This document shows positions 3,290-56,125 of a DNA stretch of 64,000 nucleotides, piece after piece; position 1 is the first letter of the stretch, and every line of letters begins with the position of its first letter. Under the pieces are notes generated by a model. The model saw nothing but the letters and a program-made list of their open reading frames with translations. It had not been told where the DNA came from and ran no database searches. Source of the stretch: Candidatus Omnitrophota bacterium (GTDB lineage Bacteria > Omnitrophota > Gorgyraeia > Gygaellales > Profunditerraquicolaceae); the NCBI GenBank assembly GCA_030691865.1, contig JAUYDL010000018.1, positions 9,518-73,517 on the forward strand, read 5' to 3'. Both the position numbers and the translations under genes were made by a program.

Positions 3290-3970
3290 ATGTCTGCACG
3301 CAAAGGGTTTTGCGATTTAGGGTTTGCCAAAATTGATACCGATAGAAAGAAACGAAAAGGATTTGCGGAAGTTATTTATTGCCCGGGAAAAGATCGCCTG
3401 CACTTAAAGGAAATTGCTAAGAAAACAATTGATTCCCGCGAAGACCTGCTTTTAACCAAGCTAGATAAAACTACATTTTCCTTTTTAAAGAAAACAATCC
3501 CTGTTTTAAAATATAACCCCCTGGCAAAAATTGGTTATTATATAAGTAAACCCAAAACCCTCTCGGAAGGTTCGGTTTTGGTGGTTTCTGCCGGAACAGC
3601 TGATATTCCGGTGGCTGAAGAAGCGGCACAAACCCTGCTCGTTATGGGTAACCGGGTCGAAAAGCTCTATGATGTAGGTGTAGCCGGAGTGCACCGCCTG
3701 ATGAATAATATTGATAAATTAAGAAAGGCTCAAGTAATTGTGGTAGTGGCGGGTATGGAAGGAGCTTTAGCTAGTTTGGTCAGCGGATTAGTCAAGGCGC
3801 CAATTGTGGCTGTACCGACCAGTTGTGGATATGGCTCCAGCTTTTCTGGTTTGGCAGCGCTTCTAACTATGTTAAATGGTTGTTCGCCGGGAGTGAGTGT
3901 AGTCAATATTGATAATGGATTTGGGGCAGGCTATTTTGCCAGTTTAATCAATAACACCCCGCGCTTATAA
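3290..3970 (+). CDS. larB: nickel-pincer cofactor biosynthesis protein LarB (PurE-like NaAD carboxylase/hydrolase)
   Basis: 226 aa. The PurE-like C-terminal half VVVAGMEGALASLVSGLVKAPIVAVPTSCGYGSSFSGLAALLTMLNGCSPGVSVVNIDNGFGAGYFA and the N-terminal FAKIDTDRKKRKGFAEVIYCPGK match the LarB/COG1691 family. No larA, larC or larE is nearby. Confidence 0.6.
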   Translation: MSARKGFCDLGFAKIDTDRKKRKGFAEVIYCPGKDRLHLKEIAKKTIDSREDLLLTKLDKTTFSFLKKTIPVLKYNPLAKIGYYISKPKTLSEGSVLVVSAGTADIPVAEEAAQTLLVMGNRVEKLYDVGVAGVHRLMNNIDKLRKAQVIVVVAGMEGALASLVSGLVKAPIVAVPTSCGYGSSFSGLAALLTMLNGCSPGVSVVNIDNGFGAGYFASLINNTPRL

Positions 3971-4078
3971 GGAATTGCGCGGGTGTTGTATTCCTAGCAA
4001 AGTAATGTTCCCCCTCGCGGGAGCTCGGGGTCATTTTTCCCCAAGCGCCGGAGGCTGGGGAAAAATGAGGAGATAATA
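3958..4078 (+). promoter_or_regulatory. composite 5' leader of acsC: a GC-palindrome module overlapping the larB stop, followed by a 65-nt conserved leader with a 12-bp perfect hairpin covering the SD
   Basis: ACACCCCGCGC-TTATAAGGAATT-GCGCGGGTGT lies at 3958-3990. TCATTTTTCCCC (4031-4042), the loop AAGCGCCGGAGGCT and GGGGAAAAATGA (4057-4068) follow, then GGAG and the ATG at 4079. A near-identical 65 nt precedes panE at 56060-56125. Confidence 0.6.
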
Positions 4079-19011: not shown

Positions 19012-19296
19012 GGGCAGGTACCCAAGTGGCCAAAGGGGACAGACTGTGTGAACGCAGCGTCTTGCCGAAAGGCAGGGTGGAAAAGTAGGTGAATTCAGGG
19101 GAGCCCCAAGTAACTCTTGGGGGAATCCTGAGCCAAGCCCGCTGTTCATCATCGCGGGAAGGTGCAGAGACTAAGCGCCTACCACCTAAAGTTAAAAACC
19201 AGGGTGATGAGATAGTCCAAGCTTCGGGGTAACTCGAAGGCACTTGAAATCTGTTGCACTCGTGCTTCAAAGGTTCGAATCCTTTCCTGCCCACCA
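19012..19296 (+). tRNA. tRNA-Tyr (anticodon GUA) interrupted by a 199-nt group I intron; CCA encoded
   Basis: The 5' exon is GGGCAGGTACCCAAGTGGCCAAAGGGGACAGACTGT and the 3' exon AAATCTGTTGCACTCGTGCTTCAAAGGTTCGAATCCTTTCCTGCCCACCA. Joined, they give a class-II tRNA-Tyr with the long variable arm and anticodon loop CUGUAAA, very similar to E. coli tyrU. Confidence 0.75.
19048..19246 (+). ncRNA. group I self-splicing intron (IC3-like, Azoarcus tRNA-Ile intron type) in the anticodon loop of tRNA-Tyr
   Basis: The 5' exon ends in U, and the intron's GCAG can pair with exon CUGU to form P1. A P2 hairpin CUUGCC-GAAA-GGCAGG is present. The core GGGAAGGUGCAGAGACUAAGCGCCUACCACCUAAAG nearly matches the Azoarcus intron core GAUGAAGGUGUAGAGACUAGACGGCACCCACCUAAGG. 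The intron ends with G (CACUUG) before AAA. Confidence 0.7.
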
Positions 19297-19424: not shown

Positions 19425-20873
19425 ATGAGCACCGAAATGAAAGATATGTTTCCCAGTCTAATAGAAAATGCCGCAGTATTGATGCTTTATTTAGACCATA
19501 ATGGAAAGGTTGCTCTTTGTAATAAGAAAACTGAAAGCATGGTTGGGCTTAAACATGCGGATATCATAGGAAAAAACTGGCTTGAGGTATTGTTCAGGGA
19601 TACAAATAATACTATGAAAAGAGAGATGTTTAAGGCAGTGCTGGATGATGCTTTGACCTATAAAAGGGCAAAGGACTTTGAGTGTCATCTCTTGAGTAAT
19701 CATGGTAACGCCCGGCTGGTCTCTTGGAATATCACTCCCATTCTTGACAAAAATAATCAGATTCAGGGAAGCCTGCTTTTTGGCCATGATATTACCGAGA
19801 TCCAGGAACGAGAAAATTCGGTCAAGAATATCGACGACACCCTAAAGAATATTATCTCCAGCATTAATGAGTATGCTTTATACGTAATTAATCTGGATGG
19901 CCTGATTACTTATTTCGGGATGGGTTGCGAAACGATGTTCGGCTACAGTAAGCCCGAGATCATCTTTAAACACGTAAGCATTCTGCATAATATTAATCAA
20001 GCCGTCTCTGAGCTTGGCCTGATTTTGGAGCGTGTGCGTCTATTTGGTAAGTACGAATTAGAACTGAAACTGTTTACTAAAGCTGGCGTGGTTATTCCGG
20101 TGAGATTAACGGTTAATCAATTTCTAGATGCCAGTAGCAAGCTAACCGGTTATATATTTATTGCCAAAGATATAACCGAGACAAAAAAATTGGAATACCA
20201 GGTCTTCCAGGCTGAAAAATTAGCCGCTCTGGGGCAACTCTCTACCGGTATGGCCCACGAAATTAATAACCCTCTTTTTGTTATCTCCGGAAGGTTAGAG
20301 ATGCTTAAACAGGAAGGGCTTAGTCAGGAGTTTAAAGAGACGATTAATTTAATTGACTCTCAGGTTAATCGTATACGTAAACTGGTTGATCGGATTCTAA
20401 AGTTTGCACGTAAATCAACCATGACTCCGGAGGCGATTAATATTAATGAAATTATCGAACTAGTTTTACCCCTGGTTCATTATAATAAATTACCGTCGGT
20501 TAAAGTTGAAATCGAAAAATCTTTTGAAAAAAATATGCCAAAAATCTCAGGCGACCCGGATCAGCTACAAGAAGTTTTTCTGAATATGATTATTAATGCT
20601 TATCAGGCCATGCCTGAGGGTGGAATAATTAAAATTACTACGAGCAATTTCCAGAATCTTTATGCCCAGATACAAATAACTGACACCGGGGTCGGCATTC
20701 CGGCGGCTAACTTTAAAAATATTTTTATGCCTTTTTTTTCAACTAAAGGCCAGGGTACCGGATTAGGATTATCAATTTGTCATAACATTATTAAGAACCA
20801 TAACGGCTCTATTGAATTGGAAAGCCGGATCAATCAAGGAACAACTTTTACCGTTAAATTACCTTTTATCTAA
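19425..20873 (+). CDS. cytoplasmic PAS-domain sensor histidine kinase
   Basis: Two PAS-like regions, a HisKA H-box LSTGMAHEINNPL and HATPase_c G-boxes GTGLGLS. The start was moved to the Met (MSTEMKDM) because the track ORF start at 19389 overlaps tRNA-Gly. Confidence 0.8.
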   Translation: MSTEMKDMFPSLIENAAVLMLYLDHNGKVALCNKKTESMVGLKHADIIGKNWLEVLFRDTNNTMKREMFKAVLDDALTYKRAKDFECHLLSNHGNARLVSWNITPILDKNNQIQGSLLFGHDITEIQERENSVKNIDDTLKNIISSINEYALYVINLDGLITYFGMGCETMFGYSKPEIIFKHVSILHNINQAVSELGLILERVRLFGKYELELKLFTKAGVVIPVRLTVNQFLDASSKLTGYIFIAKDITETKKLEYQVFQAEKLAALGQLSTGMAHEINNPLFVISGRLEMLKQEGLSQEFKETINLIDSQVNRIRKLVDRILKFARKSTMTPEAININEIIELVLPLVHYNKLPSVKVEIEKSFEKNMPKISGDPDQLQEVFLNMIINAYQAMPEGGIIKITTSNFQNLYAQIQITDTGVGIPAANFKNIFMPFFSTKGQGTGLGLSICHNIIKNHNGSIELESRINQGTTFTVKLPFI

Positions 20874-20875
20874 AG

Positions 20876-20975
20876 ACACCCGGCGCTAATTGGCACCCCA
20901 CGCTAAGCTGAATTGCGTGGGTGTCCGTCAGGTGACGGAGAATTGCGCCGGTGTTGTGTTCGTACACAAGGAGGT
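20876..20975 (+). repeat. nested GC-rich palindromic element in the 5' leader: outer ACACCCGGCGC...GCGCCGGTGT enclosing CACCCCACGC-TAAGCTGAATT-GCGTGGGTG and CCGTCAGGTGACGG, then TTGTGTTCGTACACAAGGAGG
   Basis: Inverted repeats read directly. An almost identical copy lies at 28213-28310 and related copies at 3958-3990, 23135-23165 and 34736-34881. The element begins 3 nt after the HK stop. Confidence 0.7.
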
Positions 20976-23134: not shown

Positions 23135-23165
23135 GCACCCGGCGCTAAGCGGAATTGCGCCGGTG
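23135..23165. repeat. single-module copy of the GC-palindrome family: GCACCCGGCGC-TAAGCGGAATT-GCGCCGGTGC
   Basis: A 10-bp stem with an 11-nt loop of the same TAA..GAATT type as the other copies. It lies between gpsA and tRNA-Pro. Confidence 0.65.
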
Positions 23166-23178
23166 CGCAATAGGTATT

Positions 23179-23256
23179 GCGGGGCGTGGCTCAGCTTGGT
23201 AGAGCGCTTGAATGGGGTTCAAGAGGTCACAGGTTCAAGTCCTGTCGCCCCGACCA
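23179..23256 (+). tRNA. tRNA-Pro (anticodon GGG), CCA encoded
   Basis: A C1:G72 acceptor (CGGGGCG/CGCCCCG) is typical of bacterial tRNA-Pro. The anticodon arm is CTTGA-ATGGGGT-TCAAG (GGG), and the T-arm ACAGGTTCAAGTCCTGT is followed by ACCA. Confidence 0.85.
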
Positions 23257-27017: not shown

Positions 27018-28226
27018 ATGACAAAATACATTGTATTGGTTGGTGATGGTATGGCAGATTACCCTATCGAAGGGTTGGGCATGCGCACACCCTTAGAGGC
27101 AGCCCGCACGCCGAACATGGATTTTATTGCTAAAAATGGGTGTCTGGGACAGGCCAAAACCATTCCGGATAAAATGACTCCGGCATCTGATGTAGCTAAT
27201 CTTTCAATTCTGGGGTATGACCCAAAAAAATATTATTCAGGAAGAGGGCCTTTAGAAGCTGCCAACCTGGGTATTGAATTGGAAGATGACGATGTTGCTT
27301 TTCGCTGCAACTTAATTACCGCTGAAGGTGATACTTTACTTGATTACAGTGCCGGGCATATTAAATCTACGGAAGCGGAAAAGTTACTTAAATTTATTGA
27401 TCAAAAATTAGGAAGTAATAAATTGCGCTTTTTCTCTGGGGTAAGCTACCGGCATTTGCTTCTGGTTAAGCGCGGCGCAGAGTTAAAACTGCAAAATTTG
27501 AAATGCTGGGCTCCGCATGATATTACTGGCCTGAGTATTAATCGGCACTTACCTAAAGGGGATAACGCGGATATAATTATTAAACTTATGCTGGATTCTA
27601 AAGAAATTCTGTGGAGCCATGAAATTAATCAAGTCCGGCTGGAATTAAAAGAAAACCCGGCAAATATGATCTGGCTTTGGGGGCAGGGTGTAAAACCAAG
27701 TATGCCTAAATTTATGGATAAATTCGGTTTATCCGGAAGCGTAATTTCAGCGGTTGACTTGATTAAAGGGCTAGGACGCATTTTGGGCCTAGAGGTAATT
27801 AATGTTCCCGGGGCAACCGGTTATTATGATACTGATTATGAAGGCAAGGCCAAGGCAGCAATTAAGTCTTTAAAGAAAAACGATTTTGTCTTTGTGCATG
27901 TTGAGGCTCCGGATGAAGCCGGGCATAACGGTGATTTACGCCAAAAGCTTACTGCCATTGAGCGTTTTGATCAATTAGTGGTCGGCTCCTTTCTGGAATA
28001 TTGTAAAGGTAAGGATGATTTCCGGATTATGGTTTTACCGGATCATGCCACTCCACTGACTTTAAAAACGCATACAGCAGAAGCCATTCCCTTTGCGATT
28101 TACGGAAAGGATATACCAAAAGGAGAATTTCTTAATTACAGCGAAAAAGAAGCACAAAAATCGCAACTTTATTTTGAGAATGGTTATCAACTTATGGAAT
28201 ATTTTATCTTAAACACCCGGCGCTAA
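27018..28226 (+). CDS. archaeal-type cofactor-independent phosphoglycerate mutase (ApgM) family protein; candidate non-canonical homoserine kinase from its thr-cluster context
   Basis: 402 aa. The N-terminus MTKYIVLVGDGMADYPIEGLG and the metalloenzyme domain match the ApgM family. It sits between thrC/coaB and ask. The last codons and stop (NTRR*) are supplied by the downstream repeat arm. Confidence 0.7.
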   Translation: MTKYIVLVGDGMADYPIEGLGMRTPLEAARTPNMDFIAKNGCLGQAKTIPDKMTPASDVANLSILGYDPKKYYSGRGPLEAANLGIELEDDDVAFRCNLITAEGDTLLDYSAGHIKSTEAEKLLKFIDQKLGSNKLRFFSGVSYRHLLLVKRGAELKLQNLKCWAPHDITGLSINRHLPKGDNADIIIKLMLDSKEILWSHEINQVRLELKENPANMIWLWGQGVKPSMPKFMDKFGLSGSVISAVDLIKGLGRILGLEVINVPGATGYYDTDYEGKAKAAIKSLKKNDFVFVHVEAPDEAGHNGDLRQKLTAIERFDQLVVGSFLEYCKGKDDFRIMVLPDHATPLTLKTHTAEAIPFAIYGKDIPKGEFLNYSEKEAQKSQLYFENGYQLMEYFILNTRR

Positions 28227-28310
28227 TTGGCACCCCACGCTAAGCTGAATTGCGTGGGTATCCGTCAGGTGACGGAGAATTGCGCCGGTGTTGTCTAGGT
28301 AGACAAGGAG
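28213..28310 (+). repeat. second near-identical copy of the nested GC-palindrome leader element, ending TTGTCTAGGTAGACAAGGAG
   Basis: About 85 nt match 20876-20960 with only a few substitutions. It is followed by the perfect palindrome TGTCTAGGTAGACA and GGAG 8 nt before the ask ATG. Confidence 0.7.
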
Positions 28311-28318
28311 AGTACAGA

Positions 28319-29542
28319 ATGCCTAAAGGTTTAGTAGTGCAAAAATACGGCGGCTCCTCCGTCGCTAATGTCGAGTGTATTCAAAGAGTAGCGCAAAGGG
28401 TGGTTGGGTATAGTAAAAAGGGCTATGATTTGGTAGTGGTTGTTTCGGCTTTAGGAGATACTACCGATGAATTAATCAAACTGGCTGATAAAATTAATCC
28501 TAATCCTTCAGAGCGGGAAATGGATATGCTGCTTTCTACCGGAGAGCAGATCTCGGTTGCGCTTTTGGCGATGGCTATTCATAAGTTAGGATCTGAAGCT
28601 ATTTCATTTACCGGCGCCCAAGTCGGAATTATTACTGATAGCAGCCATACCCGGGCTAGAATTATCAAAATAAACGTAGATAAAATTAAAGAGGAATTAA
28701 AAAAAGGCAGGATCGTGATCGTGGCAGGTTTTCAGGGAGTAACCTTAAATCAGGATATTACCACTTTAGGCAGGGGCGGCTCAGATTTAACCGCGGTAGC
28801 TTTAGCTAAAGAACTCCAAGCAAATTCCTGTGAGATTTACACGGATGTCATGGGTATTTATACTACTGACCCGCGCATTGAACCCAATGCTAAAAAAATT
28901 AAAGAGATTACTTATGACGAAATGCTTGAGATGGCTTCTTTGGGGGCTCAAGTAATGCAACCGCGTTCTATCGAGGTAGCTAAAAAATTTAATGTTCCTT
29001 TGCATGTGCGTTCTTCATTTAATACCAAAAGCGGAACCATGATTATTAAGGAGGTTAAAAAGATGGAAGATGTCCTGGTCAGTGGGGTGACTTTAAATAA
29101 AAATGAAGCAAAAATTACTCTTTGCGGGGTTCCGGATAAACCCGGAGTAGCGGTAAAATTATTTAAAGATCTGGCGACCTGCGGAGTAAGTGTGGATATG
29201 ATCGTACAAAACGTAAGCCATACCCGCTGGACAGATATATCTTTTACAATTGCTAAAGCCGACTGCGCCAAAGCCACCAGGATTACTAAAATGGCAGCTA
29301 AAAAAATCGGCGCCGGCGAAGTTTTGCTTGACGAAGATATCGCCCGTGTCTCGATTGTCGGGGTAGGCATGAGATCTCATCATGGCGTTGCGGCAAAAAT
29401 GTTCGGGATCTTGGCGGACAATAAAATTAATATTGAAATGATCTCTACTTCGGACATCAGTATTTCATGTATTATCAAGAAGAAAGACGCTGAAATAGCA
29501 GTAAGAAAATTACACGCTGATTTCGGGCTAAATAAGGGGTAA
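28319..29542 (+). CDS. lysC: aspartate kinase (monofunctional, with C-terminal ACT domains)
   Basis: The ATG after the SD gives [24 protein letters not shown], the amino-acid kinase fold and two ACT domains. The track ORF start at 28250 reads through the repeat and was rejected. Confidence 0.9.
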
Positions 29543-34735: not shown

Positions 34736-34881
34736 ACACCCCGCGCTAATAAGGCACCCGGCCCTTAATGGAATTGGGCCGGTATCCGCCTCGTGGATGT
34801 ACCCCGCGCTTATTGGAATTGCGCGGGTGTCCGTCACGTGACGGAGAGAATTGCGCGGGTGTTGTCTAGGTAGACAAGGAG
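34736..34881 (+). repeat. longest copy of the nested GC-palindrome leader element (three hairpin modules plus CCGTCACGTGACGG), ending TTGTCTAGGTAGACAAGGAG
   Basis: ACACCCCGCGC-TAATAAGG[CACCCGGCCC-TTAATGGAATT-GGGCCGG]...[ACCCCGCGC-TTATTGGAATT-GCGCGGGTG]TCCGTCACGTGACGGAGAGAATTGCGCGGGTGT. The last 21 nt are identical to the ask leader. Confidence 0.7.
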
Positions 34882-56049: not shown

Positions 56050-56059
56050 AATACTTCCC

Positions 56060-56125
56060 CCCTCGCGGAGCTTTAGGGTCATTTTTCCCCAAGCGCCGGA
56101 GGCTGGGGAAAAATGAGGAGGCTAA
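56060..56125 (+). promoter_or_regulatory. second copy of the 65-nt conserved leader, with a 12-bp perfect hairpin (TCATTTTTCCCC...GGGGAAAAATGA) overlapping the SD of panE
   Basis: 56079-56116 is identical to 4031-4068. The flanking CCCCCCTCGCGGAGCTTTAGGG versus CCCCCTCGCGGGAGCTCGGGG is near-identical. Confidence 0.6.

Follow-up and report, generated by a model that had tools for sequence, protein, structure and literature searches.

Several families of small dispersed repeats are known in bacteria. The BOX elements of Streptococcus pneumoniae are built in the order A-B(n)-C, with no nesting of modules in loops and no anchoring to Shine-Dalgarno (SD) sequences. The Correia elements of Neisseria and the ERIC elements of Yersinia are 100-150 bp long, with terminal inverted repeats and TA duplications, and form hairpins that change the processing or stability of mRNA in an orientation-dependent manner. 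Rickettsia palindromic elements (RPEs) insert in frame within genes and add residues to proteins. MIRUs (mycobacterial interspersed repetitive units) are 40-100-bp tandem units with small ORFs that couple translation, and were reportedly first seen, by Supply et al. in 1997, between a histidine kinase and a response regulator gene. Finally, REPINs occur mainly as inverted doublets, and in REPIN clusters new units insert into or beside resident ones (PMC3116915).

Candidatus Omnitrophota are uncultured, ultra-small and very compact bacteria whose gene expression is almost wholly uncharted. The hairpin repeats described here, present in a 64-kb stretch of one Omnitrophota contig (the window) and in many relatives, probably form an Omnitrophota-specific family of small, modular, non-coding elements that multiplies within genomes and is gained and lost at genus-level divergence (probability about 0.6). 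They are best read as a mobile or expanding repeat similar to REP, BIME, BOX and MIRU, with an unusual oriented placement beside the SD. The structure of the unit and its covariation, its placement and orientation, the boundaries of indels, turnover between relatives and taxonomic range are shown by the data, whereas the way of copying and the RNA effects are inferred.

The basic unit is about 45 nt long and consists of a conserved hairpin, P1, and, immediately 3' of it, a second hairpin, P2, whose variable sequence covaries. In P1, a 9-bp G+C-rich stem (CACCCSGCGC/GCGCSGGUG) that bulges one C closes a loop of 11-12 nt (UWA-N2-4-GGAAUU). Since the 3' arm, GCGC(C/G)GGTG, is only 9 nt long, one C of the CCC run in the 5' arm is always bulged. 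An earlier note on this DNA had recognized the shared module and the length of its loop but described a 10-bp stem with a 3' arm in ...GGGTG; it also left P2, with which each element continues 3' to the SD or tRNA, out of the element. The P1 variants covary (CG/GC, GACGC/GCGUC, CCUGG/CCAGG and UUGCGC/GCGCAA) and all retain the bulged C. The loop GGA is found in most P1 copies without being invariant, as UGAAUU, GGUAUU and UGUAUU variants occur. P2 is a hairpin of 5-7 bp whose sequence varies while its pairing is kept. At orthologous junctions between histidine kinase and response regulator genes (HK-REC), for example, compensatory changes yield UUGUGU/ACACAA, UUGUCU/AGACAA and UUGCGU/ACGCAA. 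Among 53 simple elements, drawn from about 45 MAGs, pairing is kept in 97.2% of cells and double changes affect 9 of the 15 pairs, a level reached in none of 500 shuffles. G-U pairs have no clear lead over A-C mismatches (26 versus 25; 23 versus 13 when the terminal pair is excluded), and these counts favour neither an RNA nor a single-stranded-DNA role of the hairpin. Covariance-model scores form a continuum between 80 and 23 bits (138 matches in 732 kb of loci), which indicates that decayed copies exist.

The window contains five element sites, all on the + strand and all where the earlier note had placed them. The module pattern ACCCSNSSCTWAN{2,6}GAATTGSSNSGGT has six matches there and none in 100 shuffles. 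An unfiltered covariance-model run, with the model built from homologues elsewhere, recovers these five window sites alone and gives zero matches on the - strand of the window. The sites and their parts are as follows.

3955..3985, +, site 1, a single P1 hairpin (52 bits with the covariance model)
3955-3964, 3965-3976 and 3977-3985, 5' arm CACCCCGCGC, loop UUAUAAGGAAUU and 3' arm GCGCGGGUG of the site 1 P1
3968-3970, loop UAA of site 1, the stop codon of the LarB-like ORF 3290..3970
3986-4002, +, degenerate P2 of site 1
20871-20873, stop codon of the histidine-kinase ORF, 3 nt 5' of site 2
20877..20953, +, site 2, a nested composite with outer P1 arms at 20877-20886 and 20945-20953
20894-20923 and 20924-20939, inner P1 and inner hairpin UCCGUCAGGUGACGGA, both enclosed by the outer loop UAAUUGG...GAAUU of site 2
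20954-20969, +, terminal P2 UUGUGUUCGUACACAA of site 2, adjoining the SD GGAGG (20970-20974)
20980, GUG start of the REC gene downstream of site 2
23136..23181, +, site 3, a single P1 (23136-23165) and P2 CGCAAUAGGUAUUGCG (23166-23181), 55.4 bits
23180-23256, tRNA-Pro(GGG), whose nt 1-2 are the final 2 nt of the site 3 P2 and whose first 3 nt (CGG) are repeated in the left flank of the site (...AACGG)
28214..28290, +, site 4, a nested composite with outer P1 arms at 28214-28223 and 28282-28290
28231-28260 and 28261-28276, inner P1 and inner hairpin of site 4
28224-28226, loop UAA of site 4, the stop codon of apgM (27018..28226)
28291-28306, +, terminal P2 UUGUCUAGGUAGACAA of site 4, adjoining the SD GGAG (28307-28310) of ask (AUG start at 28319)
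34737..34861, +, site 5, a three-module form with outer P1 arms at 34737-34746 and 34853-34861 around two units; model scores at the site, 57.1 and 30.3 bits
34755-34784 and 34785-34797, P1 and hairpin of unit a of site 5
34800-34829 and 34830-34845, P1 and hairpin of unit b of site 5
34862-34877, +, terminal P2 UUGUCUAGGUAGACAA of site 5, adjoining the SD GGAG (34878-34881)
34885 or 34888, AUG start of the HEAT-repeat gene downstream of site 5

Nesting (20877-20953 and 28214-28290) and a three-module arrangement (34737-34861), both reported in the earlier note, are real. Its G+C content of about 70% throughout was too high: four of the five elements have 58-61%, and 69% is reached only in the shortest module (23136-23164), against 41.8% for the window. 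Its suggestion of very stable mRNA structures agrees with the predicted RNA folds of the five sites, which range from -20 to -68 kcal/mol; their z-scores lie between -2.6 and -3.6 at four sites and at -1.25 at site 3. The SD is predicted to be largely unpaired in the folded elements. As had also been noted, the element supplies the C-terminus of two upstream proteins: 3290..3970 ends in ...NNTPRL and 27018..28226 in ...NTRR, both stopping at the loop UAA. This is a general property, the loop UAA being the upstream stop codon in 9 of 70 cases.

Copies are not confined to this region, since at least 110 genome stretches contain the motif, almost every one of them from Candidatus Omnitrophota, and the sequence, bulge and loop of P1 are conserved across the whole phylum. 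Contigs labelled Babeliales, Margulisiibacteriota and Planctomycetales that carry the motif look like Omnitrophota. The element is a sharp phylum marker for binning. No copy was identified in 2.9 million viral contigs. A search of the whole window against Rfam 15 gave nothing at the gathering score, and matches at E <= 10 in the site 5 region were at chance level (E >= 0.7). Literature searches on Omnitrophota RNA motifs, hairpins and intergenic regions, on Velamenicoccus and in one complete-genome preprint did not turn up the element. The family is apparently undescribed so far.

The placement of the element is rigid: P2 nearly always stops right at an SD, or else 2-3 nt into a tRNA gene. Of 118 motif matches, 84 precede an SD with a start codon and an ORF, and GGAG or GAGG stands immediately after 72 of 138 model matches, against a background of 4.9%. 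The distance to the start codon, measured from the P1 pattern match, which ends 1 nt before the end of the 3' arm, peaks at 25-29 nt. The downstream gene is co-oriented with the element in 86 cases and opposed in 14 (n=100), and about 11% of copies are antisense to local genes or lie without any SD or ORF. P2, the rigid placement beside SDs and tRNAs, the co-orientation and the phylum-wide conservation of P1 all go beyond what the earlier note had described. At three loci with a long intergenic region (L052, L030 and L005), a sigma-70-like promoter is located only 8-20 nt upstream of P1, and P2 still adjoins the SD. On the other side of the element, the stop codon of the upstream gene is found 1-8 nt before many P1 copies or inside the P1 loop. 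About 13% of the GGAG-type ribosome-binding sites carry the element in the sampled loci, which were themselves selected for carrying it. Orientation relative to replication, as read from GC skew, is confounded with gene direction.

Downstream genes are functionally diverse, with an enrichment in highly expressed ones (L20, L6, L31, L25, probably S20, EF-Tu, DnaK, ACP, SSB), and copies occur inside ribosomal-protein operons, in the S8-L6, L36-S13 and S13-S11 spacers. The element is also present at 13 of 110 tRNAs. At 6 of 8 tRNA sites the left flank repeats the initial 3-4 nt of the tRNA (GCG, CGG or GCGG), while target duplication at 69 SD sites is not above that of shuffled pairings. A preference for tRNAs with a GGAG-like start is unconvincing (5/13 versus 19/97).

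Presence of the element differs between relatives at about 83% nucleotide identity. At the four orthologous junctions compared, only 5-25% of close relatives carry it: 1 of 20 at HK-REC, 2-3 of 26 at tRNA-Pro and 2-3 of 32 at PilZ, while at apgM-ask about 21 relatives have overlapping genes, 9 a short spacer, 4 remnants and 11 elements, from simple ones up to a tandem of 259 nt. Architectures across these junctions include single, nested and tandem forms as well as remnants, and at HK-REC they differ among the window, L025 and L072. The apgM-ask carriers fall in at least five places on the ApgM tree, which suggests repeated gain, with the reservation that recombination between relatives could mimic such a pattern on this single-protein NJ tree. 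Perfect conservation at orthologous loci, which the earlier note had regarded as the mark of conserved cis-regulators, is clearly not observed, and this argues against a gene-specific cis-regulator. A gene-specific regulatory RNA (riboswitch or leader) was indeed discarded given the 5-25% occupancy and the diversity of the downstream genes.

The boundaries of the insertions are clean. Between loci L012 and L029, and between L024 and L034, the difference is a P1+P2 unit lying after the stop codon and before a conserved SD, and the unit before tRNA-Pro is present in the window and absent from L025. These indels identify P1+P2 as the inserted unit, added to an SD that was there beforehand. The loop-UAA stop at apgM-ask is the footprint of an insertion into the apgM tail. 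Together with the apgM-ask series, these pairs display the presence/absence polymorphism with clean boundaries that is looked for in a MITE. However, a strict MITE was rejected, with no terminal inverted repeats and no autonomous relative seen; neither end of P1+P2 (CACCC... on one side, ...CAA or ...GCG on the other) is the inverted repeat of its partner.

Sites 2 and 4, which precede unrelated genes, share a 98-nt match with 95% identity, whose near-identical part is an 80-nt composite and in which the terminal P2 differs. Units are inserted in the loops of other units and, in L056, inside a copy of an unrelated 63-nt repeat. The family of this 63-nt repeat likewise always ends at an SD. Neighbouring copies within 250 nt are direct in 20 cases and inverted in 2. 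No mobilizing enzyme, autonomous copy or excision product was found. A tblastn search with an IS608 TnpA query, a weak test limited to parts of genomes, returned no homologue in about 1.9 Mb (0.94 + 0.95 Mb) of Omnitrophota DNA, and tblastn for CsrA and Hfq returned none in about 1.9 Mb. The MITE- or REP-like mobility proposed in the earlier note therefore holds for dispersal, turnover between relatives, copying and nested insertion; it fits less well with the predominance of direct neighbours, with a transposase or RAYT not being found in this weak test and with target duplication being visible only at tRNA sites.

As a mobile or expanding repeat, the unit of about 45 nt inserts in sense, so that P2 ends against a pre-existing SD or reaches 2-3 nt into a tRNA gene. 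Further units enter between GG and AAUU of a resident P1 loop, giving rise to nesting, or duplicate head to tail. In these very compact genomes the landing point often falls within a dispensable tail of the upstream ORF, which then ends in the P1 5' arm and the loop UAA. Copying would be a DNA-level, enzyme-mediated insertion, with a putative enzyme recognizing the P1 hairpin. Once transcribed, the unit would fold between cistrons or in 5' leaders into very stable hairpins, with the SD left unpaired. Such a leader would uncouple or insulate downstream translation and could shield mRNA ends, and insertions may be tolerated or mildly useful because of these effects.

Also counter to mobility, P1 is conserved across the phylum far better than is usual for a selfish repeat. 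This conservation and the 63-nt repeat ending at the SD are explained equally well by selection for a structured leader and by target specificity. P1-P2 might then be a dedicated cis-acting RNA leader cassette spread by selection rather than by an element-specific transposition machinery. It would serve as a translation-initiation enhancer or insulator, as an mRNA stabilizer or as a processing signal for a phylum-specific RNA-binding protein or RNase, and would be re-recruited to genes needing strong uncoupled expression. Its geometry relative to the SD or tRNA 5' end, rigid even in long 5' regions, an orientation that tracks the downstream gene, the conserved bulge and loop, the compensatory changes of P2 at HK-REC, the enrichment of highly expressed genes and the predicted accessibility of the SD are all consistent with such a cassette. 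We nevertheless consider it rather unlikely: most close relatives lack the element at the same genes, which are often overlapping and translationally coupled, remnants and decayed copies persist, about one copy in nine (~11%) is antisense or without SD or ORF, G-U pairs show no excess over A-C, and no partner protein was identified. Target specificity could also be carried to its limit. A mobile element might home to the 5' edge of functional RNA starts (the SD or the first nt of a tRNA), with P2 as an exchangeable target-matching module and with a putative phylum-conserved enzyme reading the bulged P1. The matching P2 alleles would be UUG...CAA at AA/GGAGG and CGC...GCG at GCG/GGAG or CGG/GGCG tRNA starts (slash, junction). 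This more specific proposal is doubtful.

A classical REP/REPIN-RAYT system or an IS200/IS605-derived PATE, where a domesticated HUH tyrosine transposase with one gene per genome would recognize the P1 palindrome in single-stranded DNA, is less plausible still. P1 is indeed a short imperfect palindrome that keeps an extrahelical base; it lies outside genes, is highly repeated and is conserved along the lineage, and new units insert into or beside resident ones as in REPIN clusters (PMC3116915). However, neighbours are direct instead of forming inverted doublets, the tblastn test, weak as it was, revealed no TnpA homologue in about 1.9 Mb, and REPs are not known to be tied to SDs. Sites for a CsrA/RsmA-like regulator, with a dimer bridging the GGA of the P1 loop and that of the SD, about 31 nt apart, appear very improbable. 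GGA is present in most P1 loops and in the adjoining SD, and dual-site CsrA binding has been reported over a range that includes this spacing, but the loop GGA varies, CsrA does not require the conserved G+C stem sequence, copies occur before tRNAs and the 1.9 Mb searched contained no csrA homologue. That the hairpins are intrinsic terminators or attenuators closing the upstream transcription unit can be given hardly any credit. Many of these G+C-rich hairpins do lie 1-8 nt past a stop codon. They lack a U-tract, however, and P1 is followed by P2 and the SD; none of the four sites scanned (2-5) gave a terminator-like call on the + strand, ribosomal-protein operons contain internal copies, and the conserved loop and the nesting would be left unexplained.

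Other identities were discarded. Integron attC sites do not apply, as the RYYYAAC / GTTRRRY core sites are absent and copies are dispersed among housekeeping genes and ribosomal-protein operons. A sigma-70 or sigma-54 promoter inside the element does not fit by eye in hexamers or spacings, and a promoter scan was not above chance. The defining features of a K-turn, a UAA/GAN motif, boxA/boxB nut-like sites, a CRISPR repeat and a hammerhead or other small ribozyme are absent by eye. What the loop and 3' arm share with 16S rRNA near position 910 (GGAAUUG) is only a 7-mer, as expected by chance.

A repeat that occupies a sizeable share of the intercistronic spacers must shape operon expression. 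Its insertion pulls apart genes that overlapped and were coupled, places a structured leader between them and gives upstream proteins new C-terminal tails; gene calling in Omnitrophota MAGs is affected for both reasons. If insertion is truly directed by the SD, it would represent a new targeting principle for a bacterial non-autonomous element. The unit would also be a ready-made natural 'RBS insulator' cassette, spread by transposition.

Like the REP/BIME of enterobacteria and the REPINs of Pseudomonas, the Omnitrophota repeats are short imperfect palindromes, extragenic, multicopy, transcribed within operons and assembled in mosaic arrays. Fresh copies enter or flank older ones, and the same junction differs in composition between relatives. 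Unlike REPs and REPINs, they come as direct, nested or tandem copies, are tied to the SD at its 5' edge and follow the orientation of the downstream gene; one sequence is conserved across the phylum, and no RAYT was found in about 1.9 Mb (a weak test). With BOX elements they share modularity, a variable number of modules, stable RNA structures, an intergenic location and a non-autonomous nature with no known enzyme. They have no sequence relation to BOX, and their modules nest in loops and are anchored to the SD. As for the small dispersed repeats of cyanobacteria and the RPEs, they are very small hairpin-forming mobile repeats that enter each other, whereas those families have no fixed relation to ribosome-binding sites. 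Correia and ERIC elements are likewise non-autonomous and co-transcribed with neighbouring genes, but the Omnitrophota unit, of about 45 nt, has another architecture. MIRUs resemble them in being intercistronic within operons, in a single orientation, and in touching the upstream stop and downstream start signals, as is found here; moreover, site 2 also lies between a histidine kinase and a response regulator (REC) gene. Unlike a MIRU, the Omnitrophota unit has no through ORF, and it replaces overlapping genes with a structured spacer of 45-260 nt.

The five elements of the window belong to a family of modular hairpin repeats that is specific to Omnitrophota, apparently undescribed, mobile in its behaviour and unusual in lying next to Shine-Dalgarno sequences (SD). 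They occur where the earlier note had placed them, all on the + strand, and between the genes that it had named:

3955-3985 (+), site 1: between LarB-like and CdhD/AcsC-like genes
20877-20953 (+), site 2: between the genes for a PAS histidine kinase and a receiver-domain protein
23136-23181 (+), site 3: between GpsA and tRNA-Pro, the latter followed by PilZ
28214-28290 (+), site 4: between ApgM and aspartokinase (ask)
34737-34861 (+), site 5: between NadC and a HEAT-repeat protein

This list is complete since a covariance model trained on homologues from other genomes and run with filters off recovers only these five sites and leaves the - strand empty. The module pattern ACCCSNSSCTWAN{2,6}GAATTGSSNSGGT has 6 matches in the window and 0 in 100 shuffles. 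The proposed hairpin module (P1) is present, but its 3' arm, GCGCSGGTG, has 9 nt against 10 nt for the 5' arm, CACCCSGCGC, so that a single C of the CCC run bulges out, as it does in all variants seen. The G+C content, put earlier at about 70%, reaches 69% in the shortest module only; the other four elements have 58-61% and the window 41.8%. Each element is followed by an additional small hairpin (P2), which abuts the SD at sites 2, 4 and 5 and overlaps the first two bases of tRNA-Pro at site 3. RNA structure prediction gives -20 to -68 kcal/mol and reproduces the nested three- and five-way junctions. As reported before, the loop UAA is the stop codon of two upstream ORFs (...NNTPRL* and ...NTRR*).

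P2 lies directly after P1 in most copies (for example GUUGUCUAGGUAGACAA, GUGCCCUUGUGGGCAA and GUGUGUUCGUACACAA) and is followed by (A)AGGAGG and a start codon. In an alignment of 53 simple elements, 97.2% of cells are paired and both-sided changes occur in 9 of 15 pairs, a value that no shuffled or slid control came near. P2, which lies outside the search pattern, covaries at 5 of 6 pairs. P1 covariation is limited to a few positions; pair 8-29, where the search pattern did not impose pairing, is C-G in 30 sequences and G-C in 23, with 0 mismatches. Wider sampling added compensated P1 variants (GACGC/GCGUC, CCUGG/CCAGG, UUGCGC/GCGCAA) that retain bulge and loop, a short-loop subfamily, and a more divergent nested version in the lineage of locus L162 (73% ApgM identity). 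The predominant P1 loops are UAAUUGGAAUU, UAAUCGGAAUU, UUAUAAGGAAUU and UAAGCGGAAUU. The counts of G-U pairs and A-C mismatches (26 vs 25) do not discriminate an RNA from a DNA hairpin. Units also form tandem arrays; in nested forms the outer loop is always interrupted by the inserted unit between ...GG and AAUU.

An SD, a start codon and an ORF follow on the same strand in 84 of 118 pattern matches. Measured from the end of the match, 1 nt before the end of the P1 3' arm, distances to the start codon show a sharp peak at 25-29 nt, and a second group at 47-57 nt corresponds to nested or tandem forms. GGAG or GAGG directly follows P2 in 72 of 138 model matches, compared with 4.9% at random positions. 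In 86 of 100 cases the element points the same way as the nearest gene downstream; several of the other 14 are small genes that the ORF caller overlooked. Within window positions 1-40000 nearly all real-looking ORFs lie on the + strand, many of them with short overlaps of a few bases, and the GC skew stays positive almost throughout. This indicates very long co-directional gene arrays, so that gene orientation in the window is confounded with replication direction. Upstream genes usually stop 1-8 nt before P1; in 9 of 70 cases their stop codon is the loop UAA itself. At three loci (L052, L030, L005) the element occupies a long intergenic region, 8-20 nt downstream of a good TTGACA-N17-TATAAT promoter, and SD adjacency is kept; it is therefore not a trivial product of tiny spacers.

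Over all loci examined, 13 of 110 tRNA genes carry the element, with P1 ending 12-14 nt before tRNA position 1 and tRNA nucleotides 1-3 included in P2. Elements precede a variety of housekeeping genes, many with high expression, among them those for L20, L6, L31, L25, probably S20, EF-Tu, DnaK, ACP, SSB, PstS, PhoU, glutamine synthetase and ArgH; they also lie in the L36/S13/S11 spacers, which places elements inside operons that are certainly co-transcribed.

Presence varies among relatives at orthologous loci, and the perfect conservation that the earlier note regarded as the mark of a cis-regulator was not found. Several genome loci are syntenic with the window (68-83% identity). Before tRNA-Pro, the window and L072 have units with differing P1 and P2 sequences, L025 has a stop codon, 8 nt and the tRNA with no unit, and L078 has an unrelated hairpin. 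At the kinase/receiver junction, elements are present in the window, L025 and L072 and differ greatly in architecture (nested, tandem with a 20-nt palindrome in P2, and with an antisense module, respectively); terminal P2 and SD are retained, with compensatory changes. Two pairs of loci (L012/L029 and L024/L034) exhibit a clean indel of exactly P1+P2 between stop codon and conserved SD, which makes the SD part of the target and not of the unit.

A metagenome scan with ApgM yielded 80 orthologous loci. At apgM/ask, the genes overlap in ~21 relatives, with the ask SD inside the apgM tail; 9 relatives have a short spacer without element, 4 keep the 5' arm alone as the apgM C-terminus, and in 11 an element is present, the smallest a single unit and the largest a 259-nt array. 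All filled alleles have the unit between ...UAUUUUAUU and AGGAGAAC, directly 5' of the SD and within the apgM tail of empty alleles, and their apgM ORF ends at the loop UAA. What had been described as completion of the upstream C-terminus is thus explained as an insertion footprint. Carriers fall in at least 5 places among overlap-type relatives, a distribution which suggests repeated gain at one spot of the junction, within the limits of a single-gene NJ tree of ApgM and of possible recombination. Elsewhere in these loci the element occurs in 1 of 20 relatives at the kinase/receiver junction, 2-3 of 26 before tRNA-Pro and 2-3 of 32 before PilZ. The model finds only 29 matches in their 954 kb, none of them in a locus below 83% ApgM identity, which makes the genome of the window unusually rich in copies.

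Other observations also point to copying. Sites 2 and 4, which precede unrelated genes, match over 98 nt at 95% identity; within this stretch an 80-nt composite is nearly identical, and the terminal P2 differs. In L056 a unit has entered the loop of an unrelated 63-nt repeat. Model scores fall off gradually from 80 to 23 bits, which is what a mixture of young and decaying copies would give. At tRNA sites the first 3-4 tRNA nucleotides end the left flank and are given again by the right end of P2 (CGG/unit...CGG/GGCG in the window, L113 and L072; GCG in L041/L095 and L010; GCGG in L025), with L078 off by one base and L001 not fitting. Judged from sequence, this looks like a 3-nt target duplication in which the element regenerates the tRNA 5' end; 69 SD sites gave no duplication above chance. 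The three bases left of CACCC correlate with P2 type (AGA with UUGUNN...NNACAA; UAA or AAA with UGCCC...GGGCAA) and mark subfamilies whose 5' ends reach beyond P1.

Other repeats and an intron-split tRNA gene were observed in the window:

4010-4072 and 56058-56120 (+): 63-nt leader repeat CCCCCUCGCGGGAGCUCGGGGUCAUUUUUCCCCAAGCGCCGGAGGCUGGGGAAAAAUGAGGAG, two hairpins, unrelated to P1
1981-2007, 12927-12953, 12958-12984 and 41186-41212: four intergenic copies of GAAAAAUAGAACCGUCCCC, which could be part of terminators or promoters
19012-19296 (+): class II tRNA gene with a group I intron, between tRNA-Thr and tRNA-Gly

The 63-nt repeat also occurs in L056 (3 copies), L086 and L116, and in 5 of the 7 copies observed its end is the SD, 4-8 nt ahead of a start codon. 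In the sixth, from L056, a P1+P2 unit occupies the second loop, and another copy of the repeat comes after it; in L116 the repeat takes the place of the P1 element at apgM/ask. A 20-nt perfect palindrome, CCUGCCUGCCGGCAGGCAGG, is found in L086 (one example just upstream of the match at 3697-3751), L072, L116, L025, L063, L028, L087 and L077, in several cases within the P2 5' arm right after GUUG. In L042, L045 and L077 the unit is embedded in runs of heptamer repeats (CCGAKNA; ...ACCGAUAACCGAUAAC[unit]AGCCGAGUACCGAG...) with no SD adjoining. Relatives without P1 before tRNA-Pro often have another conserved long hairpin, GGAGAUGUGAUGGGGCGUGCCCCGUUGCAUCUCC (L114, L116, L133, L148), which may be another repeat family. 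The tRNA intron matches Rfam Intron_gpI at 19037-19239 (85.9 bits). Allowing introns, ARAGORN reads a tRNA-Tyr(GUA) gene whose anticodon loop holds a 199-nt intron and which default settings miss; it is also split in L078, and an HSP of L025 with 84% identity extends over the first part of the gene.

Copies are not confined to this region: in a scan of 185,579 species-representative genomes at least 110 stretches carry the motif. Among the matches listed, nearly all are labelled Candidatus Omnitrophota or Omnitrophica, including two tiles (genome stretches) of the complete Ca. Velamenicoccus archaeovorus LiM chromosome. Typical elements are also listed in nine "uncultured Planctomycetales/Planctomycetia" MAGs (L010, L019, L020, L023, L028, L045, L050, L065, L094), one "Margulisiibacteriota" contig (L068) and one "Babeliales" contig (L095). 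The last aligns with Velamenicoccus tile L041 at 85% identity, element context included, so these labels probably reflect mislabelling, misbinning or generic taxonomy. One Bacteroidales match looks like chance. The motif could serve as an Omnitrophota marker. No match was found in 2.9 million viral contigs, no family in Rfam 15, and no description in full-text literature searches.

Two functional roles can be set aside. Location inside co-transcribed operons, together with the absence of a U-tract after window sites 2-5, rules out a terminator, and imperfect conservation at orthologous loci rules out a conserved gene-specific regulator. It is possible, though less likely, that P1-P2 is in the first place a dedicated cis-acting leader cassette: P1 is conserved throughout the phylum, P2 has changed in a compensatory way at one site, elements are enriched upstream of tRNAs and of highly expressed genes, and another, unrelated repeat likewise ends at the SD, all of which would fit such a role. 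We favour a mobile repeat, in which an enzyme would copy P1+P2 units as DNA by reading P1 with its conserved sequence and bulge. A preference for the tRNA start or the 5' edge of the SD may be part of this mechanism, perhaps via P2, or the placement may be the outcome of strong filtering of insertions. Homologues of csrA, hfq and IS200-type transposases were not found in ~1.9 Mb, a weak negative. Once transcribed, the unit is predicted to fold into a pair of very stable hairpins with the SD left unpaired, an arrangement that would uncouple the downstream from the upstream gene and could protect mRNA ends.

The element resembles REP/BIME/REPIN, BOX, MIRU, Correia/ERIC and small dispersed repeats in being a structured intergenic repeat, but is a member of none of them. 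The MITE- or REP-like reading proposed earlier stands for its mobile behaviour and fails on structure. REPINs are defined by inverted doublets (PMC3116915), whereas neighbouring copies here are 20 direct vs 2 inverted; MITEs have terminal inverted repeats, which the indel unit lacks; and MIRUs, unlike the present element, carry an ORF. It stands out by its two-hairpin unit, by nesting within its own loop, by a strictly sense orientation, by being anchored at the SD or tRNA start, and by the conservation of one sequence phylum-wide.
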